From Rhodothermales bacterium (lineage in GTDB: Bacteria; Bacteroidota; Rhodothermia; Rhodothermales; Bin80), in the NCBI GenBank assembly GCA_965203305.1, contig OZ241874.1, positions 1,968,976 to 2,032,975 on the forward strand: DNA of 64,000 nucleotides, read 5' to 3'. Below are positions 2,356 through 20,939 of this stretch, in pieces. How positions within the stretch are numbered: position 1 is the stretch's first letter; each line of letters starts with the position of its first letter. The notes beneath the pieces are model-generated. The model saw nothing but the letters and a program-made list of their open reading frames with translations, ran no database searches and was not told the DNA's origin. A program made the position numbers and the translations under genes.

Positions 2356-3653
2356 GGAATTATCCAGTAAAATCCGCAAGTCTGGAACCGGGAGAGAGTA
2401 TTATTTCTCCAGTCCCATGTCCGGGGACTGCTCTTTTGGAGGGAAATTCCTGATGATGTATTCCCGCAGGGACGGGATCGGGGCGGAGTATAACTTCGTT
2501 GTTTCTTCCATATGGAAGACTCCCCGGCGAACCGCCTGGAAAAAGAGTTCTGCGCCTTCCCCCGCTCCGTACTCCTTGTCCAGTTGGTCCACGGCCACCT
2601 CCTGTTCTATCCCGCCTTCCCCCGAACTTGCCAGCAGTATCCGTGCAAAACTCCTGCACTCTTTCGCCGTGAAGGGACTCAGACGGTGTTTATAGTATTC
2701 CATGCGATTTGCCCGTCCTTCTTCCATGACGGAGGCAAGTCCCATGTCTGTCATCTTGTTGCCATGTTTTTTCAGGTAGGAGACGGCGGGTTCCGTATAC
2801 GATATGATGTGTTGCGCCCATCCGTATGTTTCCTGGGTGATCGCATCAATCCACGCGGTGGGGTCTCCCTGTGCTTCCCCTTCCTTTGTGAGCCAGTCTT
2901 CCACCACCGCCCTTTCTTCTTCCCTTTTCAGGGGTTCCATGTTGAACCTGGACCCAAGCAGTGGGCGGGATATGCCCAGTGCTGCAAAGGATTCGAAGGT
3001 CATCCCCAGCCCGCCCGCCAGCAGGATGACGGATTTCCCGACCCCGCCATTGTGAATCTTTTTCAGAAGAGTGCGGACAGGCTTGCGGTGCTCTTCTGGC
3101 GGACCACCGTCTTCGCCCAGATGCTGGGCCTCGTCCAGAATCAGTAGGAGTGGTTCCCCCGCTTTTTTTATCAGCCCCAGAGGGGTAGCCCTGGATGTAT
3201 CAACCACGGATGTTTTTCTGCGTTTTGCTCCCCCCTTGACCAGGTTTAAATTCAGCGTCCCCCCTCCTTCCACGGTGTGCGACACGGTTCTTTTTTCTGG
3301 CGGGAGACCAAGCGTTTCCTGCAGTTTGTCTGCATCCCACAAATCATCCGGGTCAATCTCTGCGACATGCCATCCAGCTTCCGCCGCCTTCATCCAGCAT
3401 TCGGCCAGAAGTGCTGTTTTGCCGATCCCCGGCGGGCCTTGCACGAGGAACGTGCTTCCCCCACTGGTCTCCCCGGACTTGGCCAGCAAGTCTTCGAATC
3501 TTTTCAGGATTCGTTTCCGTCCGTGGAAGTAGTCGGTGGCTCCCCGATCATAAAGTCCTTGTATCCCGCTCATTTCCTGTCGTGGTTGGTCAAAAAAAGA
3601 CTACGCTTCGGGGCAGGGTCTGTTCCCGCACTTGCGGATTTTACTGGATAAGC
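2356..3653 (-). mobile_element. AAA+ ATPase cassette, copy 1 (IR-bounded, putative mobile unit)
   Basis: TTATCCAGTAAAATCCGCAAG at 2360-2380 and its exact reverse complement at 3631-3651 (21/21). Perfect 12-nt direct repeat CCCATATATTAG at 2344-2355 and 3654-3665. Confidence 0.55.
2401..3573 (-). CDS. ORC/Cdc6-like AAA+ ATPase with C-terminal helical (wHTH-like) region, cassette copy 1
   Basis: 390-aa ORF. Walker A FLVQGPPGIGKTALL, Walker B LLLILDEAQHLG, VILLAGGLG. Four paralogs in the window. Confidence 0.85.
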   Translation of the reverse strand: MSGIQGLYDRGATDYFHGRKRILKRFEDLLAKSGETSGGSTFLVQGPPGIGKTALLAECWMKAAEAGWHVAEIDPDDLWDADKLQETLGLPPEKRTVSHTVEGGGTLNLNLVKGGAKRRKTSVVDTSRATPLGLIKKAGEPLLLILDEAQHLGEDGGPPEEHRKPVRTLLKKIHNGGVGKSVILLAGGLGMTFESFAALGISRPLLGSRFNMEPLKREEERAVVEDWLTKEGEAQGDPTAWIDAITQETYGWAQHIISYTEPAVSYLKKHGNKMTDMGLASVMEEGRANRMEYYKHRLSPFTAKECRSFARILLASSGEGGIEQEVAVDQLDKEYGAGEGAELFFQAVRRGVFHMEETTKLYSAPIPSLREYIIRNFPPKEQSPDMGLEK

Positions 3654-6024: not shown

Positions 6025-7359
6025 ATGAGGATGCGGGATATGTATTCCTCTTGCATTTTCATCACTAGCATAATCATGTATCGGATTCTGTCTGTCTGCC
6101 TTTGCCTCTTATGCATATATGGCAGCACAGAATGTGCAGCACAAGATGGCTTTGGCTCCATGAACCAGCTTTCAGAAAAACTGGTTCAGCGGCGATGGCA
6201 AGTTCACAAGCAAGTGAATGCTATGGCAGGTGTTTCCCTGATTGGTGCACAGTGGAGAGGCCTTGCATCACTGAACTTCGAATTGGCTAAACATCCCTTT
6301 GCTGTTCAATTAGCTGGAAATCTCAGACAGGGGCCCCTGGGACGATACGCCCCTGACTGGAATGAGACCTATGATGTTTTGCGGCTCATCCGGTTTGCGC
6401 GTGTCCAAACCCAAAATATGTATGCCCGCATCGGTCCAATAGAAGACATGCGACTGGGAATTGGACATGTCGTCAATCATTACCGTTCGTCCGTCTCATG
6501 GGATGCTCGCACGATTGGTTCCGAAGTAGCATGGAGTGGAAACCGGTTTCATCTCAGTGCCTTTACCGCAGATATTCTCTTCAATAACCTGATTGGTGTG
6601 AGGGGGAGTGTCGCTCTTCCATATTCCAGCAAACTTGGAGTCAATTATGCGAACCATATTCCAACTGACCTCATAGCCTGGAGCATTGACCTGCAGAGTG
6701 AAGTTTTCGAGACAGGCAGAATTGCCTTTGCTCCCTATGTCAGTTATGCATGGTATACTCAACACGGAGACGGGCTGGCATTCGGGGCAGATGTGCAGAG
6801 CTCCGGCTTTCTGGATGTGCTGAGTTTCCGGCTGAGAGTCGGGGCTTTTTACAGTAGCAGGCATTTTATTCCAGGTTACATCGGAACCTTGTTCAGCGTG
6901 AATAACCCGCAGAACCGAATTATCCGCAGAGGTGCCGTTCTGGAAAACATTATGCCTGAAGATTACGCAGGTCTGCTCCTGCGAGAGGCTCGCGGAGTCA
7001 ACGACCTGATAACAGAGTTTGACCTTCAGATTCTGGAAAGATTTCGAATAGCTTACAGCTGGCGGAGGCACTTCGGATCTCAGCCCCTCAGCGAATTTCA
7101 TTTTCGTCTTTTCATGAGACAGGGTGCCTACTTCAATCTCCAGGTCGGTGTTGATCGTCTTGGGGAGCACAGGTTCACAGACATCTTCTCCTCATTCTCT
7201 GAGCAGAGTGCACTAATCCTTGTGAACATACTTCGCATCAGACAGTCTGTATTTCTTCGGACAGAGGCACGATATACGTTCGAACCCATTGAGTCTGGAA
7301 CTCACTATCTCGTTCAGAGACGCTTTGAGCCAACACTGGGAATTCGAATCCATCTTTGA
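6025..7359 (+). CDS. Hypothetical secreted / outer-membrane protein
   Basis: 444-aa ORF. Likely true start at 6076 (MYRILSVCLCLLCIYGSTECAAQ, signal-peptide-like). No family recognised. Confidence 0.55.
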   Translation: MRMRDMYSSCIFITSIIMYRILSVCLCLLCIYGSTECAAQDGFGSMNQLSEKLVQRRWQVHKQVNAMAGVSLIGAQWRGLASLNFELAKHPFAVQLAGNLRQGPLGRYAPDWNETYDVLRLIRFARVQTQNMYARIGPIEDMRLGIGHVVNHYRSSVSWDARTIGSEVAWSGNRFHLSAFTADILFNNLIGVRGSVALPYSSKLGVNYANHIPTDLIAWSIDLQSEVFETGRIAFAPYVSYAWYTQHGDGLAFGADVQSSGFLDVLSFRLRVGAFYSSRHFIPGYIGTLFSVNNPQNRIIRRGAVLENIMPEDYAGLLLREARGVNDLITEFDLQILERFRIAYSWRRHFGSQPLSEFHFRLFMRQGAYFNLQVGVDRLGEHRFTDIFSSFSEQSALILVNILRIRQSVFLRTEARYTFEPIESGTHYLVQRRFEPTLGIRIHL

Positions 7360-7442
7360 GAGCTTTCCCTGAGGGTTTGATTTCAAACTGAACCATCCCC
7401 GTATCTCCTTGTCTATCCCTGAAGATACACCACACGGCATCT

Positions 7443-10400
7443 CTACTGTACATCCACCCATTCAGTGGACAGTATCTCCGCCTGCTCAAGTACTGTTTCG
7501 GCTGCTTTTTCCTGCTTGTCTGGCGGGTAGCCATATTTTCGCAGATTCCGCTTTATCAGAGCCCTGAGGTTTGCACGAACATCCTCACGAATCGTCCAGT
7601 CAATCCTGACATTTTCCTGCACGGTTCTGACAAGTTTTCGTGCAATGTCGCAGAGCTTGTCTTCCCCCATCTCCCGAACTGCACTGTCATTGGTTTCCAG
7701 TGCATCATAAAATGCCATCTCATCTTCGGACAGCCCCAGTGCTTCGCCGCGAGCGTTTGCCTCTCTCATCTCCCGTGCAAGCTCAATCAGTTCTTCAATG
7801 ATTTGTGCCGCTTCTACGGCACGATTCTGATACCGGCGGATGGTCTGTTCCAGCATTTCGGCAAAAGACCGACCCTGAACGACATTCTTTTTTCTGCGGG
7901 TTGCAATCTCCCCTTTCAGAAGTTTCCGTAGCAGCTCAACTGCAAGATTGGGCTTGTGCATATTCAGGACTTCCTTCAGAAAGTCTTCCGAGAGGATGGA
8001 CACATCCGGTTTTTTCAATCCCGCGGAGGTAAAAATATCTGTTACTCCTTCGGGCATTATGCTCCGAGAGACAATCTGACGCACCGCATGATCTATCTCC
8101 TCATCAGTCTTTCCTTCGGATGCTGCACGCTTTGACAGTGCCACTTGTACGGTCTGGAAAAATGCCACATCATCTCGTATTCGCTCAGCCTCCTCGTGTG
8201 GAACGGCCAAGGCAAACGCTTTCCTGAGCTGACGGACGACGGTTACATATCGCTCTTTGCCTTTTTCCTGTGCCAAAATATGTTCCATTGCAGCTGGCAA
8301 CAGGGCGAGTTGCTCTGACGAGGAGGCAACTTTCCAGTCAAATCCGTGAAACATATCACAGCAGATTTCATAGTTTTTGAGCAAAACCTGAACTGCCTTT
8401 TCCTTGTCCACCGTTGCATCACCTTGTCCACCGCTTTCTGTATAGTTTGCGAGTGCCTGCTTCAGTGCATAGGCTAGACCCAAATAGTCAACAATCAAAC
8501 CTCCTGGCTTCTCCTTGAATACACGATTGACTCTGGCAATAGCCTGCATCAATCCGTGGCCTCGCATTGGCTTGTCTACGTACATGGTGTGCAGGCTGGG
8601 GGCATCAAAGCCTGTCAGCCACATGTCACGCACCAGAACCATCCTGAGTGGATCTTCCGGGTCCCGAAATCGCTTTGAGAGCAGCTCTCTTCTGGATTTG
8701 TTTCGTATGTGTGGTTGCCATTTAATGGGGTCCGAAGCTGATCCGGTCATGACGATCTTTAGCTCACCTGAATTGTCATCATCGTTACACCAGTCTGGAC
8801 GAAGACGCTCCAGCTCTTTGTACAAATCAATACAGATACGCCGACTCATGCAGACCACCATTGCCTTTCCCTTCATTACCTCCAGTCGCCCTTCAAAATG
8901 GTTGACGATATCTTCCGCAATAATTGCTGTGCGCTTCTTTGCACCAACGATAGCCTCCAGTTGTGCCCACTTTGTTTTTACCTTTTCCCGGCGATTGGCT
9001 TCTTCAGCCTCCGTGACTTCCTCAAAATCGCTGTCAATGTTGGGTTTCTCGTCCTCGTTCAGCTTGAGCTTCACAAGGCGATTTTCATAATAAATCGGAA
9101 CGGTGGCACCATCATCAACGGATCTGCGGATATCATAAATGCTGATGTGATTCCCAAATACTGCGCGAGTATTGGCATCCGCATGCTCAATGGGTGTTCC
9201 GGTAAATCCAATGAATGAGGCATTGGGCAATGCGTCTCGCATATGCCGTGCATAGCCGTCAATAAAATCATACTGGCTGCGATGCGCCTCGTCGGCAATC
9301 ACCACGATATTGTGTCGGTCCGAGAGTAGCGGATGCTCTTCTCCTTTCTGATCAGGAAAGAACTTTTGAATTGTCGTGAATACAATGCCTCCTGATTTTA
9401 CGGAAAGTCTTTTTCGTAAATGTGCCCGGCTTCTCGCCCGAACAGGTGACTGACGGAGGAGATCGGAACACCGTGAAAATGTGGCAAACAGTTGATCATC
9501 CAGATCATTCCGGTCGGTCAGTACAACAATGGTCGGATTTTTCATTTCCGGTTCCCGTACGATACGACCTGCATAGAACGCCATCGTCAGGCTCTTGCCG
9601 GATCCCTGCGTATGCCAGACTACACCAATCCGGCGATCTCCTATATCTCCTCCATGCATCGTGTTCTCTCTGAGGGCTACTTCCCTCTGCATCTGTGTGG
9701 CACGCAGGGTTTCTTCAACAGCTACATCCACAGCATGATATTGGTGATATCCGGCCATCTTTTTGGACAGCACACCACTTCCGTCATCCTCAAACACAAT
9801 GAAGTCCCGGATTAATTTCAGAAGTCTTTCTGGCTTGAGAACACCCTCTGTCAATACCTCTAGTTGCAACTTATCCCGAGACTCCTCCTCCTCCTTCCCC
9901 GAAATCGTTCGCCATGGCTTGAACCACTCTGGTCCAGCAGTTAGCGTCCCGATACGCGCTTCTATTCCATCTGATATGATCAGAGCGGCGTTATAAGTAA
10001 AGATGGAAGGAATCTGCGACTTGTAGGTTTGCAGTTGCTGATAGGCGGACTGGACAGTCGTCCTCTCATTCGAAGGATTCTTCAGCTCCACAATGACCAG
10101 CGGCATCCCGTTGACAAACAGTACGATATCCAGCCTCCGTCTCCGTTTATTTTCTTCCACGGTAAATTGGCTGACGGCAAGCCAGTCGTTCTTGCTGTGA
10201 TCGTCAAAATCAATTAGCCGGACTTGGGCACCCCGGAAACGCTTGTCATATTCATCATAATACTCCGTCGGTACACCGTCTATGAGCATGCGGTGAAATG
10301 CATGGTTACGACTTTCCAGTGCAGAACCACCGGGGTGGTACACATCTATTTGTGCACTGATCAGAGCACTCATGGGAAGCCACGAGTTCAGCCTGTCAAG

Positions 10401-10577
10401 GGCATCACACTGTCTGCCCCCAAAAATCACCTCCTGCTCTCTCTTCACTGAACCAATGCCTCTCTCATGCCGGTCAAGATCACTCTCATGTTTAACCTCC
10501 CATCCAAGGCGTTCCAGCCACTCCAGTAAAGTGGTTTCAAGTGTTGATTCGGTAGGAACTGCAATGCCATCCGTCAT
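7443..10577 (-). CDS. hsdR: Type I restriction enzyme R subunit
   Basis: 1044 aa. Helicase motifs [10 protein letters not shown] and [11 protein letters not shown]. Same strand and operon context as hsdS and hsdM. Confidence 0.9.
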
Positions 10578-10593
10578 TATTTACCAGTTTTCG

Positions 10594-12348
10594 TTATTGC
10601 TTTTCATAGCGGTAGTCAAAGATACAGGAGGCTCCCAGCATCTCGCGAAACCAGAGCGTCGCACTGGCACCGAGAGCGTCTCTGAGATGTATCGATTCAT
10701 TCAACAGAAAATGCACCGGTTGTGCCTGTCCTTCGTTGATGACGATACCAGATGCATAGAGATGTATACGATCCAAAGCATCCAGTATCGGATTCAGGTG
10801 TCCTTGAATCCCGGGCATATTTCCTGAATGACTGGGAATAATCTGCGATCCTCCATTCGGGGCAGGCCGAAGAAAAATTTTTAATGGACTTTCCGGCAAG
10901 TAATGTCGCTCCACATGTGCCTCGAATCCCTCTGCCGCACAGAACACGGTCACTGGAAGTCTGGAATGGAGGGAGAACCGGACCTGTCCAAGTGCATCTG
11001 TTTGTGCTTCCAGGTATGTATTATTCGGATAGAGTACGAGCACTTGTACTCCCGGCTGCGGTTTTTCCGTGTCTCCGTGAGAAGCCATCACAGAAACAGG
11101 TATACCCTCAGGCACCGGGAGACGGGCTGCAGGCAAAACAATTTTCAGTTCGCGCCCTCCGATTAACTGGAACATCGGCTTCTGCCCCGTCAGAGAGTAG
11201 GTATCATCCTCAATAATCCCAACTCCTTCCCCTCTCCGTTCTATAAAATACTCACGGCCTCCAGATCCCGGAAGATCACCAACCGGGCACTGTCCCAATC
11301 GTGAAGCCAGCAGTTCATTGCGTGTGAACTGGCTCATGCGGAGATCCTCCGTAGTCATGGAATTGCACAGACCACCGGGAGAGTACAATTCCAAACGATC
11401 TTTAAACATAAGCAGGCGGATGTGTGATCCGCGAACTGCATAGTCACGGTGGACCACTGCATTTACAACAGCTTCAAAAACCGCCCTGATACTAAACTGG
11501 GGCAAATCCATTCGGGCAGGATCCTTGTAGGCTGCAGTGCGCATATTCTTCTCTACGAAACGTACAGCTTCGCGGATCTGCTGATCAATGGGGCCAGCGA
11601 TATCCCGGGAATCTATCTGCTGACTGCTGTCCATTCGTTGTCCCCTGTAGCACACAGCTTGCACCCATGCATTCGGCAACCATTTTCGCGGATCCTCTGA
11701 TGCCAGCAGTACGCCTCCCACCGTTGCCAGGAAATCACCGCTTGCATCTCGTTTGATGAATTTCAATTTCGCCAGAGCAACTTCGGAAGATTCCTGTATC
11801 CGGGAGCTCATATACTTGCGCCACAGCCCCCTGTGAAGACTTTTAATACCGGTATTCCTGATGACCTGGGTATCTGTGGAAGAGTCATCGGACTGCCCGC
11901 GCATATGAGTCAGCCTACTGACCTCGGCTGCCTCCATTTTATGCTTTCGATCTCCTTTCCGACGAAAGTATCCTCCTGGAGAATGATGCACCGTCGTGCT
12001 CTGGGGGATTTCCACCAGGAGTGCGCCACCGCCATCAGGTTCCACTGCCACCCTGAAGACGCTGTAGTCAAGAGACGGCTTGATGCTGTCCATACATATC
12101 TCACCTACCAATCTGACGAGTGTATCCAGCTCCGAACGATCCAAAGATTGTGGTCGTCCGTCATCCGTTACTCCCAGTACTAGCCTGCCTCCGTTACCAT
12201 TGCCGAAAGCGGCCATCTCATCCGCAAGGGAATCTCTCCGGGGTGCCGTAACCTTCTTGCCCCGGAACTCAACGGCCTTCAGCTCCATGTTTGTATCCTC
12301 CCCCAGAGCGACCTCCTGCCAGAACCTTGTCGGATTACTCAATGCCAT
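10594..12348 (-). CDS. AlbA_2 (Schlafen-like) + HATPase_c_4 (RecG-C-terminal-like) putative DNA-binding protein
   Basis: 584 aa. N-terminus ELKAVEFRG...GGRLVLGVTDDG, then AVVNAVVHRDYAVRGSHIRLLMFKDRLELYSPGG. Start overlaps the hsdS stop (TAATG at 12348). Confidence 0.65.
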   Translation of the reverse strand: MALSNPTRFWQEVALGEDTNMELKAVEFRGKKVTAPRRDSLADEMAAFGNGNGGRLVLGVTDDGRPQSLDRSELDTLVRLVGEICMDSIKPSLDYSVFRVAVEPDGGGALLVEIPQSTTVHHSPGGYFRRKGDRKHKMEAAEVSRLTHMRGQSDDSSTDTQVIRNTGIKSLHRGLWRKYMSSRIQESSEVALAKLKFIKRDASGDFLATVGGVLLASEDPRKWLPNAWVQAVCYRGQRMDSSQQIDSRDIAGPIDQQIREAVRFVEKNMRTAAYKDPARMDLPQFSIRAVFEAVVNAVVHRDYAVRGSHIRLLMFKDRLELYSPGGLCNSMTTEDLRMSQFTRNELLASRLGQCPVGDLPGSGGREYFIERRGEGVGIIEDDTYSLTGQKPMFQLIGGRELKIVLPAARLPVPEGIPVSVMASHGDTEKPQPGVQVLVLYPNNTYLEAQTDALGQVRFSLHSRLPVTVFCAAEGFEAHVERHYLPESPLKIFLRPAPNGGSQIIPSHSGNMPGIQGHLNPILDALDRIHLYASGIVINEGQAQPVHFLLNESIHLRDALGASATLWFREMLGASCIFDYRYEKQ

Positions 12349-14345
12349 TATTTCGGCTCTGTCGCGGATGTTACGGGCAAGGATTCCTGCAGTAAAGAGG
12401 GAGGATTTACTCCGGGATTCTGGAGAATATTTTCGACTTCAGTGAGTCGGATTTCTCCAGATATCAGCTTGGGAAGCAGAGTATTGCGTATCCGAGAGAG
12501 CATCTCGTTTGCCTTAGTATTTACTACAATGCATGCATAAAGTGGCCGTACCAGGCCGTAATAGGCAGTCAGAATTTTACTTGAAGGTACTGTAACTGGA
12601 ATGGGACAGAAGGATCTTTTGTTAATCTCCGCAAAGGTTGATCCACTGGATACAGCCTTGATGTATTCAATATTTTGATGGCACCAAAACAGAACAAAAA
12701 TATTGGGAAGTTGCTTGTTACAAACCATGGCAATGAACCCTTGATTCACTGCGGTTGGGTCTTCAGCAATGGCCAAGTAGCCAATAGGAGCGCGTGAGGA
12801 AAGAAGAACGGTACCGGCAGGCAAGAGCCCCGAACTTATCTTATTCAATCCGGCATCAGTAATCTTTCTGTCTGTGTCAAGCAACACCGGTGATGTCAAC
12901 TTGGACAAGTCCTTTGGGGTGGCCCAATTATGCGTACCACCATCCCAGTAGGAGTGGTCTTTCGTACTGGGAGTTCCACCACCGAAAACATCAACTTCAC
13001 TACCGATTTCGGATACCATCCACCCGGCAGGCTTGCCTTCGTCATCCAGCATATCTGGAAACAACTCCCATATTTCGGGAGGCAGGTAGGAATCGCGTCC
13101 TTCCATTTTTGCCCGCACCGGCCCGAAATCCACAAACCAGTCCTTGAAGATCGTCCGTGCGATTGCCTCCAGCGTCTGATTCATCTGCCGGTTCAGTTGG
13201 ATCTTGTCATCCAGCGTGCCCAGGATATGGGCAATGGCTCGCTGTTCTGGAAGAGGAGGAAGATCAATCTCCAGTTCACAGATATCGGTAGGGCGTATTG
13301 CCGGATATGCTGATGTGCTGTGTTCAGCGATGGTCTGGAGTCGTTCTACGATTTGATCTTGTGCCAGAAACCAGTAGAGAAAACCAGTGTCTGCGATATC
13401 TTCTCGCGCATGGAATACTGCGAAGCCAGTGGATGCGAGGACGTTTTCAGGGATGTCTCTCAGCAATCCAAAGTGTCTCTGATTCGGTCTCACAGTTGAG
13501 AATACAATATCACCAGTTTGTACTTTTCGGCGCGCACGGCTGGGGAGCTTGCCATTTCCGGTGTCAAAGCGTTGAAATGCCTCTATCCAGTTATCTGTGA
13601 TGCTGCCCGTATCAAGATAATTGACGAATGGCCATTCCTCGCACTGGGAATATGTCTCTTTGTTCATGACGATGCATTCATCCAGCCTGATTCGGGGCCA
13701 TATTCTATGTGGAATCATACCATTGCCCAGTCTAACATGGTCTGCTGGAATCTTCTGTCTGATTTCTCCGGATAAGTCGTCCCAAACAGATATGCATACG
13801 CGAAATAACAAATCGCTTTCTTCCAGTGATTTCCCCAACTCATCAACCTGTTGCTGTTGTTTGGGGGTGGAAAATACAGCAAGGTACAGATCTGATTTTG
13901 GAGTTGCCGAACCATTCACCCTGTCTCCATAAGCCCATACTTCTGTATCTGGCAGATGCTTCTGAAGCAATTTTTGAATGGTTCTGAACTCCTTTTCGGG
14001 AATGTCTATGATCGGGCTAACTGTGTCCTTGGGACTTTGTATAAGCACACCATGCGCACGCACAATGCCTCGGAAATCATCCTCCAGTCTTGCAAATTCT
14101 ACGATATCAACTCGGAAAGGAAGCTCTGACTCAACGAATTCCTCCTTCAAATTCCAGAGTGTACTTTGGGGCAGAGGCACTTCTCCCATAATGGCAATGT
14201 CAAGATCAGAATAGTCCCACGCAGTCCAGGTGGCACGGGAGCCAAAGGCAAGTACACTGCGATCTGGCACATGCCGCTGAAGAGTCTCACGAACAATGTC
14301 CCAGTGGTCAGGACGCAGATCAATGGAGGGAGGAGATGCACTCAT
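12348..14345 (-). CDS. hsdS: Type I R-M specificity subunit HsdS with two N-terminal MNT (minimal nucleotidyltransferase) domains
   Basis: 665 aa. aa ~30-100 LAFGSRATWTAWDYSDLDIAI...LPFRVDIV. aa ~120-215 VWAYGDRVNGSATPKSDLYLAVFS...LLFRVCISVWDDL, paralogous to ORF 17477-17797. Then HsdS TRD and conserved-region motifs (LPPLPEQRAIAHILGTLDDKI, LLPKLISGEIRL). Confidence 0.8.
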   Translation of the reverse strand: MSASPPSIDLRPDHWDIVRETLQRHVPDRSVLAFGSRATWTAWDYSDLDIAIMGEVPLPQSTLWNLKEEFVESELPFRVDIVEFARLEDDFRGIVRAHGVLIQSPKDTVSPIIDIPEKEFRTIQKLLQKHLPDTEVWAYGDRVNGSATPKSDLYLAVFSTPKQQQQVDELGKSLEESDLLFRVCISVWDDLSGEIRQKIPADHVRLGNGMIPHRIWPRIRLDECIVMNKETYSQCEEWPFVNYLDTGSITDNWIEAFQRFDTGNGKLPSRARRKVQTGDIVFSTVRPNQRHFGLLRDIPENVLASTGFAVFHAREDIADTGFLYWFLAQDQIVERLQTIAEHSTSAYPAIRPTDICELEIDLPPLPEQRAIAHILGTLDDKIQLNRQMNQTLEAIARTIFKDWFVDFGPVRAKMEGRDSYLPPEIWELFPDMLDDEGKPAGWMVSEIGSEVDVFGGGTPSTKDHSYWDGGTHNWATPKDLSKLTSPVLLDTDRKITDAGLNKISSGLLPAGTVLLSSRAPIGYLAIAEDPTAVNQGFIAMVCNKQLPNIFVLFWCHQNIEYIKAVSSGSTFAEINKRSFCPIPVTVPSSKILTAYYGLVRPLYACIVVNTKANEMLSRIRNTLLPKLISGEIRLTEVENILQNPGVNPPSLLQESLPVTSATEPK

Positions 14346-14362
14346 TGCAGAGAGTTATGCGC

Positions 14363-14803
14363 CTATTCATCCCTTGTCTCCAAAAAACGAACCAGATCAT
14401 GTGCATCATGAATGAACTTTTCTATGGATTCATACACATGTTCAGCTCTCTCGAAATCATAAATATGGGTGGTTCTATTCCGTCCTTCATTATACTGCAC
14501 CCAATTGTCTACATCATGGATAAGTCTATGCTCAGCTGCGATTCGAAAAAAATGCCGTCTAGTTACTCCTTTTACTATATCTGGAGATATATTCTCTTCA
14601 AGCCATCGCCTCATCATCTTCCAGCAGAGTTCATACGTTATTTCAAAGTGCTGGACAACACCAGCACGAATCGCAATACGCTCAAAATGACTCAACTGAA
14701 TCATGCGCTCATTATCCTCGCTCACAGCAAGAACTTCAACAAGCGCATCAAGAGACTTTTTTAAGTGATCAATCTGGAGAGGCATCGCTTTTTTTGACTT
14801 CAC
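14363..14803 (-). CDS. HEPN domain protein, HI0074 (nucleotidyltransferase substrate-binding) family
   Basis: 146 aa. Rx4H motif RNRTTH. Paralogous to 17026-17439 and 17785-18210. Confidence 0.75.
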   Translation of the reverse strand: MKSKKAMPLQIDHLKKSLDALVEVLAVSEDNERMIQLSHFERIAIRAGVVQHFEITYELCWKMMRRWLEENISPDIVKGVTRRHFFRIAAEHRLIHDVDNWVQYNEGRNRTTHIYDFERAEHVYESIEKFIHDAHDLVRFLETRDE

Positions 14804-14873
14804 TGATTGTGGTCACAGGGCACACTCCCCGCAATAAGGATATGTCTCTGAGCAGAAACATCATCACGAATTT

Positions 14874-16460
14874 CTACTTCCCCTCCTCCATTTGAAATCC
14901 CAATACACCCAAATTTTGCTTAATTGCGCTGTCAAGTCTGGCACTTTCAGTCTGCTGCCTGTGAAGTTCGGCTACCAGTCTCCCCATCTTGTCCGCAAAC
15001 GGTTCTGTATCTTCTTCCTCAGCTTCCATGCCAACATAGCGTCCCGGTGTCAGAATGTAACCATTCCTGCGAACCTCATCCAGCGTGGCACTTTTGCAAT
15101 AACCCGGGATGTCCTCATAGTCACCTGCCTCTGTTTCCGCCCGCCATGAATGATAGGTGCTAGCAATGCGGCTGATCTCCTCGTCACTGATTTCGCGACG
15201 CGTTCGGCTTACCATCTGACCAAATTTGCGTACATCAACAAATAGTATCTCATCCCGCTTGCGCTCACGGGAAAGGAACCACAGACAGGCAGGAATCTGG
15301 GTTGAGTAGAAAAGCTGCCCGGGAAGTGCTACCATGCAATCAAGCAAGCCATCTTCAATCAGATTCTTTCTGATTTCTGCCTCTGCCGACTGCCCTGATG
15401 ACATTGATCCGTTTGCCAGTACAAACCCTGCAATTCCTCCCGGAGCTAAATGGTGCAGGATGTGCTGAACCCAGGCATAATTGGCATTGCCCTTTGGTGG
15501 TATGCCATGAACCCATCGCTTGTCCTCTACCAGATGCTCCCCTCCCCAGTCGGAAACATTGAATGGTGGATTAGCAAGAATAAAATCTGCCTTTAAGTCT
15601 GGATGTTGATCATTGAGAAAAGTATCTCCATGTGCAACCTGTCCGTCAATGCCGCGAATCGCCAAATTCATTTTTGCCAGTCTCCAGGTTGTATGATTCG
15701 ACTCCTGACCCCAAACGGATATATTGCCTCTCGCCTTACCTCTATTGCCATTTCCCGTGGCATGCGACTGAATAAACTCGACCGATTGAACAAACATCCC
15801 GGATGAGCCGCAACATGGATCATACACCCGCCCATGATACGGTTCAATCATTTCAACCAGAAGCCTCACAATGCATCGGGGCGTATAAAACTCGCCTCCC
15901 CTCTTGCTCTCAGCACTTGCAAATTGAGAAAGGAAGTATTCATAAACGCGACCCAGTACATCTTTGGCTCGGGCTTCTTTTCCACCTACCCGGATGTCGC
16001 TAATCACATCTATGAGTTGTCCCAGTCTTACCTTATTGAGCGCAGGACGGGCATAGTTCTTCGGAAGAATATCCTTAAGGCTCTCATTCTCGCGTTCAAC
16101 TGCAATCATTGCCTCATCAATATGCTGGCCAATCGTAGGCTGACGTGCCTGCTCCATCAGATTCCCCCAGCGTGCTTCCTGAGGCACCCAGAAAATATTT
16201 TCTCTCCGATACTCGTCAGGATCCTCTGGATCGGCACCCTGGTTGCGCTCTCCCTCAAGCACATCATGTCGTTCTTCAAACGCATCCGAAATATATTTCA
16301 GGAAGAGAAGTCCGAGTACAACATGCTTGTATTCAGCCGCGTCCATTGAGCCACGCAGAGCGTCCGCCATCTCCCAGAGTTTGGCTTCATACTCTGCCAT
16401 CATATCTTTCTTCCCCATGGCTGAATCACCGTTGTTTTGCCCCTTGCTATTGCGTGACAT
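14874..16460 (-). CDS. hsdM: Type I R-M DNA methyltransferase M subunit
   Basis: 528 aa. N6-adenine MTase motif [11 protein letters not shown]-binding region [12 protein letters not shown]. Confidence 0.9.
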
Positions 16461-16696
16461 AAGCTGTTCTATACAAGTTTGTTATTTCTGCATATCCATT
16501 TTACTCCTTGCATGCTTCGCAGAACGTTTGCACTTCACGGCTATTATTCCAGATATGCATTTCGTCACGAAACTCTCTCTCGTCCCTGTTACGATCCCAC
16601 ATTAAAACAGTACTTCTTCCGTATTGGCATGTAGTATTCATCCGAAAATGTACAACACCCAGATGCAGTCAGATATCAATGATTCATGGCTGGATT

Positions 16697-17026
16697 TCAC
16701 TTATCTGCGAGGGAAACATCTCCCCTGTCCCGTCGATACCACTCAATACCATAGTTCAAAATGTGATCCTTGAGTTTCTGATTCCGTATTGACTTGTACA
16801 GAACCAGATCTACGGACTGCGCCATCGGGATACAGTCCAGTATAGCAGCAAGGCTTGCCTGATCCGTCAGTGTTAACTCCTCTCCAAACAGTGCAATGTC
16901 CACATCGGACACTACGGTGCTGGTTCCCATTGCTCTGGACCCAAATAAAACAGCTCGTTCCACTCGTTTATTTGCCGCGAACTGGGCAATGATTGCATCC
17001 CGATGTACATCCTTAATACCGCCCAT
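16697..17026 (-). CDS. MNT-type nucleotidyltransferase (antitoxin-like)
   Basis: 109 aa. LFGSRAMGTSTVVSDVDIALFG (GS...DxD). Start overlaps the upstream HEPN stop (TAATG). Confidence 0.75.
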   Translation of the reverse strand: MGGIKDVHRDAIIAQFAANKRVERAVLFGSRAMGTSTVVSDVDIALFGEELTLTDQASLAAILDCIPMAQSVDLVLYKSIRNQKLKDHILNYGIEWYRRDRGDVSLADK

Positions 17027-17439
17027 TATGAAATACGTCTGGCTTCAAGGGTTCGGTGGATTCGCAGGAGTACCGGGTGATAGTGCTTCTTGATCAGATC
17101 TTGGGCCTCTACTGCAACCTCACTCAGATAAATATGGCTTAATAAATTGCGCTTGTCCAAAGCATCAAGCAGTGTCTCGCAATCATCCTGGCTAAGATAA
17201 CCAACTTCAAAGCTCTTGCGGATGACCGCTCGGGGCACCCGTACATCATGTTCTTCACAGGAAAGCAGGTCCTTCAAAACGTTCCATGACAGTCCAAAAC
17301 AGAACTCAAATGTCTTGATTAACCCGGCAAGCTCAAGGTTATTGTACTGCTCTTGCTCACAAGCATCAGTCAGCTGTGCAAGTGCTTTTCCATAACTGTC
17401 CAGTCGCTGGTGCCAGCGTTGTTCGCCTGAATTGCCCAT
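17026..17439 (-). CDS. HEPN domain protein, HI0074 family
   Basis: 137 aa. Rx4H motif RNLLSH. Confidence 0.75.
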   Translation of the reverse strand: MGNSGEQRWHQRLDSYGKALAQLTDACEQEQYNNLELAGLIKTFEFCFGLSWNVLKDLLSCEEHDVRVPRAVIRKSFEVGYLSQDDCETLLDALDKRNLLSHIYLSEVAVEAQDLIKKHYHPVLLRIHRTLEARRIS

Positions 17440-17476
17440 CCCTCTAGTATTCCCGATTTTGCCTGAGAACAGACTC

Positions 17477-17797
17477 TTATGGCACTCTGTTCACCAGCGG
17501 GAAAGCTTCAGAAGCAATTTGTTCCTTGAACCTCTCTGGCAGATCGTCCCACACGAACAAATCCACACGGAATGGCAGATCACTTTCCTCAAATTCTTCC
17601 CGCAAATCTCCGATCTGTTGCTCTTCCTCGGGTGTTGAGAATACAACGAGATCCAGATCTGATTTTGGAGTAGAGGTTCCTTTCACTCTGGATCCATATA
17701 TCCAGACGGTTGTGTCAGGAATGTAACTGGCAAGTAACCTCTGAATGATCTTGAAATCCGCCTCCGTAATGTCCACAGCTGAGATTATCTCTTCCAT
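17477..17797 (-). CDS. MNT-type nucleotidyltransferase (antitoxin-like)
   Basis: 106 aa. VWIYGSRVKGTSTPKSDLDLVVFS. Overlaps the upstream HEPN gene by 13 nt. Confidence 0.75.
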   Translation of the reverse strand: MEEIISAVDITEADFKIIQRLLASYIPDTTVWIYGSRVKGTSTPKSDLDLVVFSTPEEEQQIGDLREEFEESDLPFRVDLFVWDDLPERFKEQIASEAFPLVNRVP

Positions 17798-18210
17798 ATT
17801 TCTCCGGTCATTTTCTGGTAGAGACGAATAGCATCATCAATGAAGTCTGGAATCAACTCTGTACAATCCTCGGCTTTCCCTTTATTGTAGTCATGTGATG
17901 TATCATTCCGTGCATTCGTGTATTTCAACCACCGGCTCAGAGGTTCTTCCAGCAAATCATTTTCAAAGGCCAATCTTAGTACAGGCTTTGGGCTGTTGGG
18001 AGGGGAAGAAACTCCAAGTTCCTCGGCTAGATATCGCCGCAGAACCTTCCATAAGCAATCGTAGCAGGTCTCAAACCGCTTGATCACTGATTCAGTGACC
18101 GCCTGCCCCATAAGTTCAAATTCAAGCATGACTGGCATGGGATTTTGGCAATTTTCATTTTGCTCCTCCAGTCGTTCAAGCGATAGTCGGAATTTCGTAT
18201 AGTCCATCAT
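17785..18210 (-). CDS. HEPN domain protein, HI0074 family
   Basis: 141 aa. Rx4H motif RNDTSH. Confidence 0.75.
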   Translation of the reverse strand: MMDYTKFRLSLERLEEQNENCQNPMPVMLEFELMGQAVTESVIKRFETCYDCLWKVLRRYLAEELGVSSPPNSPKPVLRLAFENDLLEEPLSRWLKYTNARNDTSHDYNKGKAEDCTELIPDFIDDAIRLYQKMTGEIWKR

Positions 18211-18554
18211 ATCCTTGCAACCTACATCTCGTAAAAATCAAACAAAAGAGCCTCTGGCAAAATTCCCGGTTGAGGAAGAGACATTAACCTGAGAATGCTT
18301 GCAGGCACATTAGGTCGGTTGGCGTGCAGAGATATTCCTATAAGAACCCCTCAAAATCATCTTACGCACAAGACCAAAGATGTTCATATCATCCACATCT
18401 TCTGTGCCAGTCCAGTGATTTCTGGATTTACGGAAGACACAAATTAAAAAAATCTGGGCGCATTTCAACGCGGCCCGCTATATGCGATTAGGCTGGTGTG
18501 TATCCAGAATCATTCCACTCTGAGAATCAATCATCTGCAAGAACCAAAGGTTTT

Positions 18555-18653
18555 GAGGCTCCTGCGAAAACATACTCTGGACCCGATCTAATGTGTCCGA
18601 AAGCACTCTCGGAGCGATATTTCTCCGTCATCTGGGAATTTTGCAAGAGGCTC
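18555..18653 (-). repeat. ~100-bp unit of the GAGCCTCTTGCAAAA-bounded repeat family
   Basis: Reverse strand reads GAGCCTCTTGCAAAATTCCCAGATGACGGAGAAATATCGCTCC...TTTTCGCAGGAGCCTC. The first ~45 nt match the units at 727 and 35200. Confidence 0.55.
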
Positions 18654-18905
18654 GTTTTGCCAAAATGACAAATCGAAACCGTCAAAGTCAGGAACAAAAT
18701 GTAATCCCTCTACTCGTTATTCAGAAGTGTGCACAAGAATACAAGCCCCAAAGGCTCGGCCTTGCTCAGGATCGCCGCCCTACGAAGAAGGCAGGAGCTA
18801 GGCTTACTGCTAAGGGGCAGATGTACTGTTCTATAATTTCCGAAACAAGAGGTTCCCGCCTTAATATTTTTCTGCCAAAAACACGGATATGTTGGCTTTT
18901 TACAT

Positions 18906-19043
18906 TTAAGATGTAATAACCCTGAATTCAATCCGAGCCAGTATCACCAGCAACGGCCCCCGTGTGGTCTGGACTGCTTCCTTCTGCTTTTCGTTCAGAC
19001 CATCAAGGATTTTCGCTGTATCGAATTTCTGCATCCCACTCAT
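18906..19043 (-). pseudogene. UvrD/PcrA/Rep-family helicase, N-terminal ~35-codon stub
   Basis: From the ATG at 19043: MSGMQKFDTAKILDGLNEKQKEAVQTTRGPLLVILA, the conserved N-terminus preceding Walker A in UvrD-like helicases. Similarity ends before GAGSGKT. Confidence 0.6.
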
Positions 19044-19052
19044 TTTCTTGAT

Positions 19053-20371
19053 GGAATTATCCCGTAAAATCCGCACAGGATGCAGGGAGAGAGTATTATC
19101 TCTCCAGTCCCATGTCTGTGTCCCGATCACTGTCCATACGATCTTGCCTGCGGCGTGCTTCCACCTCACGGATATGCGCAGCGCGTTCCGTCAAGTACTT
19201 GTGCAGGGACGGGATGGGGATCGTGTAGAAGCCATTTTTACGGTAGAGAACGCCTTGACTGACCACTTGTGCAAACACGGCTTCGCCCAATTTCTCCAAA
19301 AGCTCTTTTTTGGGGACATGTTCCTGCGCATTACGAAATATCTTCACCAAGCGGAGGATGTCATCGTTGTCGACCCCATACAGTCGGCCTTGATAGTATT
19401 CCATGCGTTCTTCCCGCCCTTTCTCCATGACGAGACGCAGCAACTCCGGGGTCATCACCCCATCGTTCGCGTAGACCAAGTGGGCGGCATTCCGTGCATA
19501 GGAATCTACATGCCTGGGCCACAAATACGTCTCTTGGGTGATCGCATTGATCCAGTCTGTGGTGTCCCCTTTTGCTTTCCCTGCCCTTTTGAGCCAGTTC
19601 TTGATCACCTGCCGTTCCTCCTCCTCTTCCAGTGGTTTCATATCAAAATGGCATTGAGCTGCCATCCTGGATATCCCCAGTGCTTTGAATGCGGCATGGG
19701 TCATCCCCAGTCCACCCGCCAGCAGGATCACGGGCTTCCCCAACTCTCCATTGTGAATCTCCGTCAGAAGATCGCTGACCTCGTCTTTGTACGGTCCATT
19801 GATATTTTTGCTTTCTCCCATACGCTGGGCCTCGTCCAGAATCAAGAGGAGCGGGTCCTTTATTTTCTGGATCAGGCTCTTGGGGGTGACCTTCGGAGTG
19901 GCTTTTTTTGTCGTCCGTGATAGCCCCCCTTCGAGGGATGCCCCAAAGTATTTCACTTTCCCGCCACCCCCGATGGTTTTTTCTGTGGCGACCTCTTTTT
20001 TCTTCAGCCCCAGGCATTCCGCCATCAAGTCCGGATCCCACAGGGCCGTGACAACAAGTTTTCGGACCTCCCACTTCTCTCTCTTTGCCTTCTTCCTGCA
20101 TTCGTCCAGCAGGGCCGTTTTGCCGATCCCCGGCGGCCCTTGCACAAGGAAGATGGTCCCTTCGTTATTTTCTTTGTCATCCACCAGCCTGTTCTCAAAG
20201 CTGTCCAGTATGGGGGTGCGCCCGTGGAAGTAGGGGGTGGCTCCACGGTCTGTGGATTTTCGAAGCGGATCCATGGTTCCTGTCGTGGTTGGTCAAAAAA
20301 GACTACCCTTCGGAGCAGGGTTTGTTCCCCTATTGCACCCCTTGCGGATTTTACGGGATAACTCCCAATAA
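19053..20371 (-). mobile_element. AAA+ ATPase cassette, copy 2
   Basis: TTATCCCGTAAAATCCGCA at 19057-19075 and CTTGCGGATTTTACGGGATAA at 20341-20361 (19-nt perfect IR). GATGG occurs on both sides (19050-19054, 20372-20376). Confidence 0.55.
19096..20274 (-). CDS. ORC/Cdc6-like AAA+ ATPase, cassette copy 2
   Basis: 392 aa. FLVQGPPGIGKTALL, LLLILDEAQRMG, VILLAGGLG, IPIPSL. C-terminus DTDMGLER. Confidence 0.85.
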   Translation of the reverse strand: MDPLRKSTDRGATPYFHGRTPILDSFENRLVDDKENNEGTIFLVQGPPGIGKTALLDECRKKAKREKWEVRKLVVTALWDPDLMAECLGLKKKEVATEKTIGGGGKVKYFGASLEGGLSRTTKKATPKVTPKSLIQKIKDPLLLILDEAQRMGESKNINGPYKDEVSDLLTEIHNGELGKPVILLAGGLGMTHAAFKALGISRMAAQCHFDMKPLEEEEERQVIKNWLKRAGKAKGDTTDWINAITQETYLWPRHVDSYARNAAHLVYANDGVMTPELLRLVMEKGREERMEYYQGRLYGVDNDDILRLVKIFRNAQEHVPKKELLEKLGEAVFAQVVSQGVLYRKNGFYTIPIPSLHKYLTERAAHIREVEARRRQDRMDSDRDTDMGLER

Positions 20372-20638: not shown

Positions 20639-20939
20639 TGCCTATTCCAATCAATTGGGCCGGTGAATCCAATTTTATTGGGCCACCCGTTCGGCATGTT
20701 TGGGATAGTGTTCATGACTCGGCAGATTGGGGCTGTAATTCTTGTTCTCCTTTGATCTTTCGCATGGACTCTCCGGTTAACGGAATGCGGTGTGCATTGT
20801 TGACGAGGCGATCCAGAATGGCATCCGCCAATGTGGGATTTTCCATGGTTTCATGCCACTTGTTGACCGGATACTGACTGGTGACAATGGTAGAGCACCA
20901 TACCCCTGAGAAAAAAACCTCCATCAATGAGAATCGCAA
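20639..20939 (-). mobile_element. IS21-family right-end remnant (istB 3' fragment plus terminus)
   Basis: Translation ...[53 protein letters not shown] resembles the IstB C-terminus. The ~75 nt after the stop, ending TG at 20639, recur inverted at 37845-37922. Confidence 0.65.

Follow-up and report, generated by a model that had tools for sequence, protein, structure and literature searches.

A minimal nucleotidyltransferase fused to the specificity subunit of a type I restriction-modification system beside a HEPN gene: a putative captured toxin-antitoxin module

We analysed a stretch of 64,000 nucleotides (nt) from the genome of a Rhodothermales bacterium (GenBank assembly GCA_965203305.1, contig OZ241874.1, positions 1,968,976 to 2,032,975 of the forward strand), here called the window, in whose coordinates all positions are given. 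It carries a type I restriction-modification (R-M) operon on its minus strand. The specificity gene of this operon, hsdS, encodes a 665-aa protein (12348-14345, minus strand) in which two minimal nucleotidyltransferase (MNT) domains precede the HsdS moiety, and the gene directly upstream, HEPN-3, encodes a small HEPN protein of the HI0074 family. The fusion is genuine; far from being a peculiarity of this genome, it is common and conserved in a phylogenetically broad family. We propose that the R-M operon captured a HEPN-MNT module resembling type VII toxin-antitoxin (TA) systems, that the HsdS-borne MNT AMPylates the HEPN ribonuclease (RNase) and that control of the toxin thus depends on HsdS. 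We would give this proposal an even chance of being correct.

Results

The fused gene and its homologs

The 665-aa open reading frame (ORF) was also found in a second assembly: over 12.4 kb, the window shares 99.976% identity with an independent 26.7-kb contig from ENA (L083), on which a gene for the same 665-aa protein is called. Looked up by its exact sequence, the protein gave no record, and the locus of the second assembly was found by way of a 140-aa form of HEPN-3 (P0121). Among the best 120 homologs of the 665-aa protein, 102 are MNT::HsdS fusions and 18 are plain HsdS proteins. The fusions comprise 88 with a single MNT (about 540 aa) and 14 with two (about 620-670 aa, the query counted). 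When MNT1, the first of the two domains, was compared alone with 1.84 billion cluster representatives, 3341 matches were obtained. Within the best 150 of these, 79 proteins are at least 480 aa long with the MNT at the N-terminus, 14 have the size of a free MNT and up to about 115-121 run on into HsdS-like sequence, the script count of 121/150 taking in a few HEPN::MNT proteins with a C-terminal MNT. The type I specificity model PDLC03138 of PADLOC is itself MNT-like over its first 89 positions, i.e. the architecture is already contained in that model set.

We also considered that a frameshift or a mis-join, in assembly or annotation, might have produced a false MNT-MNT-HsdS frame. Split hsdS, hsdM and hsdR ORFs, typical of long-read indel errors, do occur in related loci (L012, L063, L073). 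The identical ORF in the independent assembly, the 13 other double and 88 single fusions in independent assemblies, an example on a complete RefSeq plasmid (Zymomonas mobilis pZMOB01) and an AlphaFold2 model that is confident and continuous nevertheless leave such an artefact a negligible probability. The fusion had been described in a first-pass annotation of the window, which named an N-terminus that is not a nucleotidyltransferase (NTase) and a frameshift artefact as the findings that would speak against it. The match of the N-terminus to PF18765 and the second assembly contradict both, and the fusion stands as described.

Catalytic motifs and predicted structure

MNT1 occupies residues 1-105 of the fusion (14031-14345, minus strand) and matches PF18765 with an E-value of 2e-14 over residues 21-104. 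Its catalytic residues are intact (G35-S36, D47-L-D49 and D80, i.e. GS...DLD...D), in agreement with the GS...DLD noticed at first pass. The N-terminal MNT keeps GS and DxD in 102/102 fused homologs, with an acidic third position in 97/102, and the two motifs are likewise kept in all 23 N-terminal MNTs of the fused loci from species-representative genomes described below. MNT2 (residues 106-213; 13707-14030, minus strand) reads GD...DLY...C. The pattern GSx(9-13)DxD followed by a third acidic residue, which holds for MNT1 and for MNT-A and MNT-B, the two free MNTs of the locus, fails for MNT2. This second domain, whose lost catalytic residues and kinship to MNT-B had been recognised earlier, is a probable pseudo-enzyme. 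Such decay is recurrent: of the 14 double fusions, 10 have an inner MNT in which GS or DxD is missing, and in 12 at least one of the three positions, the third acidic one included, is lost. The paralogy with MNT-B (ORF 17477-17797) is reflected in 51% identity over fusion residues 113-208 (E 4e-36). Scanned alone, the MNT2 segment (residues ~106-213) has a weak, marginal Pfam score (PF01909, 21.1 bits for a cut-off of 21). The ancestral MNT of the double fusion is not settled by pairwise identities, MNT1 being at most 65-66% identical to single fusions and MNT2 51% to MNT-B.

In the AlphaFold2 model, MNT2 reached a predicted local distance difference test score (pLDDT) of about 90 and showed the same alpha/beta order of helices and strands as MNT1. 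MNT1 has three helices only, i.e. it is a short MNT without the long alpha4 helix. It resembles HI0073 (PDB 1no5) in sequence (E 8e-21) and in fold (Foldseek TM-score 0.94, root-mean-square deviation 1.0 Å, 46% identity). The HsdS moiety (residues 214-665; 12348-13706, minus strand) contains two stretches matching PF01420 (E 1.5e-30), scores 321 bits with the PADLOC model Specificity_I and is similar to the type I S subunit 1yf2 (Foldseek E 6e-25), with long helices at residues 365-405 and 589-629.

HEPN-3 (14363-14785, minus strand; PF08780 E 2e-31) is separated from the fusion gene by a 17-nt spacer. Its listed ORF reaches up to a GTG at 14803 (146 aa). The true start is probably the ATG at 14785 (140 aa), since the 140-aa form is called in the source genome (P0121) and in nearly all homologs. 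The protein matches HI0074 (PDB 1jog, E 1.6e-15) and the HEPN toxin of Legionella (8xdj, E 4e-7). With 86.4 bits it scores above the TIGR01987 (HI0074) cut-off of 55.8 bits, as do the two other HEPN proteins of the locus, HEPN-2 (68.6 bits) and HEPN-1 (63.8 bits). The Rx4H motif that had been reported for all three was read again from the translations, and a tyrosine was found in addition at position H+2 of each (RNRTTHIY in HEPN-3, RNLLSHIY in HEPN-2, RNDTSHDY in HEPN-1), which makes it a full RX4HXY. In HEPN-3 this tyrosine is Y115 of the 146-aa ORF or Y109 of the 140-aa form. HEPN-3 keeps a Q-x-F-E motif (Q51, E54), the counterpart of Q44/E47 in the Legionella protein, where HEPN-1 and HEPN-2 have K-x-F-E.

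Genomic context of fused and unfused loci

One genome per GTDB species was scanned with an alignment of the fused protein, and 82 loci were annotated by our own ORF calls and hidden Markov models (HMMs). Of at least 584 relatives, the scan retained the best 80, and the frequencies therefore hold for this clade of HsdS and not for all type I systems. ORF starts are longest-ORF approximations, and the HEPN HMM, built from three sequences, may miss divergent HEPNs. N-terminal NTase fusions were numerous in this survey of HsdS homologs, which the first-pass annotation had suggested, and their neighbourhood was strikingly uniform: an HI0074-type HEPN was present in 22/23 fused loci, compared with 2/59 unfused ones (Fisher p = 1.2e-16), and abutted or overlapped the 5' end of the fusion in 21/23. 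The order in fused loci is hsdM-HEPN-MNT::hsdS, with hsdR downstream where the contig allows. In both HEPN-bearing unfused loci the MNT has an ORF of its own and hsdS is split, so that they look like broken fusions. The HEPN kept Rx4HxY in 19/23 fused loci.

The hosts of this arrangement belong to the Gamma- and Alphaproteobacteria, Acidobacteriota, Binatia, Dehalococcoidia (Chloroflexota), Rhodothermales and Spirochaetia, and further to Latescibacterota, Nitrospira, Poribacteria and Pseudodesulfovibrio (Desulfovibrionales); many of the genomes are metagenome-assembled (MAGs). The names or lineages of several MAGs among the closest loci suggest symbionts of sponges or marine invertebrates (Spongiisociaceae, Poribacteria, Candidatus Poriferisodalis, a Bathymodiolus symbiont, Endozoicomonas), and the fusion family may be over-represented in symbionts whose genomes contain many R-M and TA systems.

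Individual relatives illustrate different degrees of association. A 44%-identical relative of HEPN-3 (L085) forms a free HEPN-then-MNT pair amid housekeeping genes. Plasmids of Acetobacter carry an intact unfused set, hsdM-HEPN-MNT(101 aa)-hsdS(432 aa)-hsdR, with overlapping genes, the overlap between MNT and hsdS being 8 nt. On pZMOB01 of Zymomonas mobilis ATCC 10988 a HEPN gene (RNLTSHTY) is followed by MNT::HsdS (527 aa) and hsdR, and a HEPN 63% identical to HEPN-3 lies in the context hsdM-HEPN-MNT::hsdS-hsdR beside an integrase and mobilisation genes. A plausible series would lead from a free HEPN-MNT pair to its insertion between hsdM and hsdS, then to loss of the gene boundary (single fusion) and finally to gain and decay of a second MNT. 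Two gammaproteobacterial MAGs show further arrangements. In L006 (6385-9413) the order is HEPN-MNT-HEPN-MNT::HsdS, in which an additional pair borders immediately on the fused module, as is the case in the window, and in L004 (6986-9441) an ORF with MNT and HEPN matches overlaps an MNT::HsdS ORF; both may be intermediates toward double-MNT fusions.

The HsdRMSp system of Z. mobilis ZM4 (Lal et al. 2021) was followed up as a possible assayed example of the fusion. This lead, which arose from two CDD domains in hsdSp and a gene number skipped between hsdM and hsdS, was rejected: on pZM32, hsdM is immediately followed by a gene for a plain 420-aa HsdS, and there is no HEPN.

Layout of the locus

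According to the ORF list of the window, the type I R-M/HEPN-MNT cluster consists of nine co-oriented minus-strand ORFs (7443-18210). Their order and coordinates were found as first described, and every domain assignment, the HEPN, MNT, hsdM, hsdR and AlbA_2 calls among them, is backed by Pfam or NCBIfam scores. The cluster begins with HEPN-1 (17785-18210, 141 aa; PF08780 E 1.5e-23), for which we favour the long ORF over the 114-aa call in the ENA contig because the Pfam match begins at residue 3. It overlaps by 13 nt the downstream MNT-B gene (17477-17797, 106 aa; PF01909 E 6e-12, PF18765 E 1e-11), whose motifs are intact (GS...DLD...D) and whose product matches PDLC03138, 'Specificity_I', at positions 2-89 (E 2.6e-17). 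HEPN-2 (17026-17439, 137 aa; PF08780 E 2.2e-27) follows and overlaps by 1 nt the MNT-A gene (16697-17026, 109 aa; PF18765 E 2.1e-14, GS...DVD intact). A gap of 236 nt separates MNT-A from hsdM (14874-16460), which encodes a type I N6-adenine methyltransferase (PF02384 E 2.7e-106, PF12161 E 8e-28, PADLOC MTase_I 696 bits) and starts at ~16417 in the call of the independent assembly (514 aa). HEPN-3 and the fusion gene come next. Downstream of the fusion, a gene for a 584-aa AlbA_2 (Schlafen-like)/HATPase_c_4 protein (10594-12348; PF04326 E 6.5e-13, PF13749 E 1e-14), whose start overlaps the hsdS stop, is interposed before hsdR (7443-10577). The latter encodes the 1044-aa restriction endonuclease and translocase (TIGR00348 607 bits for a cut-off of 284.55, PADLOC REase_I 1064 bits; further matches to PF04313, PF18766 and PF11867).

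By sequence this is a complete type I system, with the methyltransferase and N-terminal domains in HsdM, two target recognition domains (TRDs) plus central and C-terminal conserved helices in HsdS, and nuclease, superfamily 2 translocase and C-terminal domains in HsdR. All three HEPN and MNT gene pairs are adjacent and co-oriented with the HEPN gene first, which is also the order in the free relative L085. The operon had been called 'interleaved' with HEPN-MNT modules. This is right for the third module, which alone lies truly within the R-M gene set, but overstates the layout for the two others: they stand upstream of hsdM and are ordinary two-gene modules of the same family beside the operon. 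Consensus scans for promoters and terminators between 7000 and 19500 gave counts not above those in shuffled sequence, and the window contains neither Rfam matches nor tRNAs.

The AlbA_2/HATPase_c_4 gene is independent of the HEPN-MNT module. Among the 82 related type I loci, ~14 contain homologs with both domains, whose place varies (ahead of hsdM, or between hsdS and hsdR), and the protein matches pAgo-associated models of PADLOC (E 2.8e-15). In BREX systems this architecture is reported to be widespread (PMC12839542).

A truncated hsdS copy and the flanks of the cluster

Outside the window, the same genome contains an orphan hsdS (P0055, 577 aa) that has no hsdM next to it. Over the first ~225 residues, corresponding to TRD1 and the central conserved region, it is near-identical to the fused gene (95.6% DNA identity over 755 nt, L091:6131-6885 against window 13053-13806), and its TRD2 differs. 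Since homology at the DNA level already sets in 89 nt before its ATG, within MNT2-coding sequence, P0055 is a 5'-truncated duplicate of the fusion gene, and this ATG is merely the first available start. The copy may constitute a silent cassette for TRD shuffling. Translation of the fused gene from an internal start at Met210, the very position at which P0055 begins, would give a plain HsdS; it was rejected on account of this upstream homology; no Shine-Dalgarno-like sequence precedes Met210 in the window.

The cluster is bracketed by two paralogous genes for AAA_16/STAND-like ATPases (2401-3573 and 19096-20274, both minus strand; 390 and 392 aa, 41% identical, E 4e-94), which could be further defence genes or duplications at island borders. 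Between HEPN-1 and the upstream ATPase gene, some 880 nt (18211-19095) contain short overlapping ORFs only, with no Rfam match and no convincing promoter or terminator. A C-terminal fragment of IstB, the IS21 helper, lies just past the cluster (20712-20939, minus strand) and a DDE_Tnp_1 transposase gene at 54640-56508 (minus strand). From ~21.4 kb on, housekeeping genes were found (a class IV aminotransferase and a chorismate-binding PabB/TrpE-like enzyme). The IstB fragment, the transposase and the onset of housekeeping genes suggest that the R-M/TA block is an inserted island.

Discussion

Proposed mechanism

The observed architecture, its conservation, the co-occurrence with HEPN genes and catalytic motifs that are preserved in MNT1 and the HEPN but decayed in MNT2 can be accommodated in the following scenario. 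A type I operon would have taken up an HI0074/HI0073-type HEPN-MNT module between hsdM and hsdS, and the MNT would have become joined to the N-terminus of HsdS. HEPN-3 would be an RNase toxin and is presumed to be the cognate toxin of the HsdS-borne MNT. MNT1, using ATP, would AMPylate the tyrosine of RNRTTHIY and perhaps also bind the HEPN, which would thereby be kept inactive. MNT2, as a non-catalytic copy, would probably be a spacer or a partner for docking. A single tethered MNT in each complex would suffice mechanistically, since the MNT of Legionella acts on a HEPN tetramer as a single copy. Because the sole dedicated neutraliser of HEPN-3 is part of HsdS, control of the toxin would be tied to the production, stability and accessibility of this subunit. 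If HsdS or the M2S complex were lost, depleted or blocked, for instance by a phage anti-restriction protein, newly made HEPN would stay unmodified and cut RNA. The ensuing arrest of the cell would act as a second line of defence and/or as a penalty for loss of the operon. Tyrosine AMPylation and toxicity of the HEPN are here borrowed by analogy from its relatives; from these we infer that HEPN-3 may be toxic, that MNT1 may modify it and what the trigger might be.

Several points weigh against this scenario. AMPylation is covalent and catalytic, and existing toxin would therefore not be freed at once by loss or blockade of the antitoxin; unmodified toxin could arise only through a de-AMPylase or through new synthesis. 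Within 2-3 kb there are also genes for two free MNTs of this subfamily, which may cross-neutralise HEPN-3 and so weaken the dependence on HsdS. Retention of RX4HXY does not prove RNase activity, since R and H are not catalytic in the Legionella protein. The MntA equivalog NF047752 (cut-off 60 bits) was missed by the fusion (53.8 bits), MNT-A (45.0) and MNT-B (43.7), for which reason we file these MNTs under the HI0073/HI0074 branch and not under MntA/HepT proper. The AlphaFold2 monomer is confident for each domain, but its inter-domain geometry is unreliable (predicted template modelling score 0.66, low-confidence linkers). There are also loci that do not fit well. A Binatia MAG (L007) encodes an MNT::HsdS (6935-8659) with GS and DxD intact and no detectable HEPN, and in ~3/23 fused loci the HEPN is without Rx4HxY while the MNT is still intact. 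An MNT that stays intact where the HEPN is absent or has lost its motif hints that the MNT may have an additional role.

We tentatively extend the proposal one step further. The HsdS-borne MNT might be the coupling device of widespread, hitherto unrecognised 'guardians' of restriction: the resting M2S(R2) complex would keep the HEPN AMPylated, MNT2 would dock or position the HEPN oligomer, and a DNA-mimic anti-restriction protein or another insult, by occupying, distorting or destroying the HsdS-containing complex, would stop AMPylation and lead to abortive infection through the RNase. This extension is possible, but we think that the chance of its being wrong is clearly the larger one. The guard-against-anti-restriction trigger is purely our inference, and the computed data do not separate a guard from addiction or from passive hitch-hiking.

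Alternative explanations

The module may serve addiction only. In that case the HEPN and the HsdS-fused MNT would make the operon, and hsdS especially, costly to lose, phage or anti-restriction would not be sensed, and the fusion would guarantee joint inheritance and expression of the antitoxin and the specificity gene. The module indeed belongs to a bona fide TA family, several of the loci are on plasmids or beside integrases and mobilisation genes, and remnants of insertion sequences flank the island in the window. In addition, hsdS genes are recombination-prone, with a truncated second copy in this very genome, and a selfish benefit of embedding was discussed by Payne et al. (bioRxiv 2024.01.29.577857). 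Covalent neutralisation, however, makes classical post-segregational killing inefficient, and the fused MNT, unlike a labile antitoxin, belongs to a stable structural subunit. Addiction, which we consider rather unlikely as the sole explanation, also leaves unexplained why, in the loci sampled, HsdS was the only fusion partner and neither HsdM nor HsdR ever served as one. Alternatively, the module may be a passive hitch-hiker: an ordinary HEPN-MNT pair would have inserted, the stop codon of the MNT gene would have been lost and the fusion would be tolerated, with a TA system working without any cross-talk to restriction. Loss of this stop codon would be easy where MNT and hsdS genes overlap, and the unfused arrangement in Acetobacter already has the 8-nt overlap. 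Free pairs of the same family exist, one in a housekeeping context and two beside the operon of the window, and unrelated embedded genes such as that of the AlbA_2 protein are common in type I operons. A neutral accident would, on the other hand, not be expected to dominate, yet 102 of the 120 closest HsdS homologs and most close relatives of the MNT are fused. Nor would it be expected to last across many phyla while the TRDs diverge, or to acquire repeatedly a second, degenerate MNT. We therefore judge hitch-hiking to be unlikely.

A different function altogether would result if HEPN and MNT formed a two-subunit nucleotidyltransferase, in which the HEPN binds the substrate and the target is HsdR or HsdM (for restriction alleviation or regulation), DNA ends or a phage protein. 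A HEPN acting as substrate-binding subunit was the original proposal for HI0073/HI0074, Pfam names PF08780 'NTase substrate binding', and a tether to the DNA-recognition subunit would place the enzyme at target sites. Such a function would also account for MNTs that are intact where the HEPN is missing, as in L007, or is without Rx4HxY, as in a Latescibacterota MAG (L082, 6522-8779), whose double fusion retains two intact MNTs and stands beside a HEPN without Rx4H. But the HEPN-MNT pairs studied, including the short-MNT relative from Legionella, are self-contained TA systems in which the HEPN is itself the substrate, and the acceptor tyrosine is conserved in 19/23 fused loci. We deem another target quite improbable and retain HsdS-dependent AMPylation of HEPN-3 as our working scenario.

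Implications

The notion that bacteria 'live virus-free or die', with immunity wired to suicide or dormancy, rests on few worked examples, such as PrrC, Ronin and PARIS. An antitoxin enzyme and an R-M specificity subunit in one polypeptide would be a literal form of such wiring, found across many phyla and on plasmids of the culturable Zymomonas, with the unfused form in Acetobacter as a natural control. The coupling hypothesis can thus be tested directly by simple genetics and mass spectrometry, as a fused system is available on a plasmid in Zymomonas and an unfused control in Acetobacter. If coupling holds, it would show that a catalytic (type VII) antitoxin can be regulated without degradation. 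Should the guardian extension be true, this would be the first TA enzyme physically built into a restriction enzyme and would generalise the principle of PrrC and Ronin across phyla. There are practical aspects as well. Toxin control embedded in this way is invisible to defence-system finders since fused S subunits are annotated only as 'restriction endonuclease subunit S', and deletion of hsdS for better transformability could unleash a toxin in fused systems.

In agreement with the first-pass annotation, which knew of no characterised MNT-HsdS fusion, full-text literature searching returned no description of one. Anantharaman et al. (2013) report a clustering of NT-associated HEPN families with R-M operons, suggest that HEPNs linked to R-M follow a PrrC-like logic and describe fusions of R-M-associated HEPNs to nucleases, helicases and ATPases, not to methylases. 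The accessible text and supplement contain no fusion of an MNT to a specificity subunit and use 'RM_TRD' only as a legend abbreviation, though a figure may still draw such an operon. The text of Payne et al. (2024), in the parts open to searching, does not mention MNT, nucleotidyltransferase or HsdS fusions. What is new here is the covalent attachment of the antitoxin enzyme to HsdS, together with a pseudo-MNT; HEPN modules embedded in R-M operons and type VII-like HEPN-MNT pairs were known.

Comparison with known systems

The placement of the module in the HI0074/HI0073 family, made at first pass, is in line with all scores, and a member of this family from Legionella pneumophila was shown to be a type VII TA system with the HEPN as a toxic RNase (Jin et al. 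2024, PMC11586414; PDB 8xdj/8xeh/8xeo). There, a short, alpha4-less MNT sits as a single copy on a HEPN tetramer and poly-AMPylates Y105 of RX4HXY, and the RNase activity needs a metal site formed by Q44/E47 and, unexpectedly, not the R and H of the motif (PMC11586414). HI0073/HI0074, the Legionella pair and the locus in the window share the sequence subfamily, the short MNT without alpha4 and the motifs GSx10DxD and RX4HXY. Unlike in these pairs, the MNT described here, known from its sequence, is the N-terminal domain of HsdS and is accompanied by a degenerate MNT, and the module lies between hsdM and hsdS. In HepT/MntA of Shewanella oneidensis and HEPN/MNT of Aphanizomenon flos-aquae, the HEPN RNase is neutralised by oligo-AMPylation of a tyrosine adjacent to Rx4H (PMC7641770), and the GS/DxD nucleotidyltransferase logic is common to these and the module proposed here. 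Their HEPNs, however, belong to the DUF86/PF01934 branch, which is matched weakly in the window (E 0.003), and canonical MNTs of this type carry the alpha4 helix, whereas those of the window fall below the MntA equivalog cut-off. The gene order differs too: HEPN precedes MNT here, whereas MNT comes almost always first in the dyads surveyed by Anantharaman et al.

The conceptual model for a guard is PrrC of EcoprrI, a type Ic R-M system, which is held inactive by the R-M proteins and freed when a phage peptide inhibits restriction (PMC3710099; PMC12707154). In both cases the gene of a HEPN-superfamily RNase lies within the hsd operon, here HEPN-3 between hsdM and hsdS, an arrangement kept in 21/23 fused loci. 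PrrC, though, is a fusion of an ABC-ATPase with a HEPN that is silenced non-covalently and without an antitoxin enzyme, whereas the locus described here combines a small HEPN with a putative AMP-transferase fused to HsdS. The HEPNs of the window are neither PrrC nor RloC: they are single-domain proteins of 137-146 aa that match PF08780 only, with no PADLOC match to PrrC. In Ronin, the effector RonA is restrained by an HsdMS decoy and unleashed by Ocr, ArdA or Aop1 (Silas et al., bioRxiv 2023.04.06.535777). The control of a toxic effector by HsdM/HsdS, with HsdS as the platform that couples the sensing of anti-restriction to cell death, resembles the proposed guard. Ronin, however, has no hsdR and employs a 61-aa membrane protein as effector, whereas the present operon has a full-length hsdR and no RonA-like gene, and its candidate effector, a HEPN of the RNase type, would be controlled enzymatically.

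Genes embedded in type I R-M, BREX and DISARM systems are often defence genes (Payne et al., bioRxiv 2024.01.29.577857). Among the candidates derived by such guilt-by-embedding, the models of PDC-S09 in PADLOC, a single-gene candidate, are matched by the two free MNTs of the window; none of its three HEPNs matches any PADLOC model. A last parallel is provided by FhepTA, fused MNT-HEPN proteins (NAR 2026, PMC13000451), which share the theme of a type VII component fused to another polypeptide in a way that alters how neutralisation is regulated. The MNT of FhepTA has its own toxin as fusion partner, whereas here the partner is a subunit of another defence system and the toxin stays separate.

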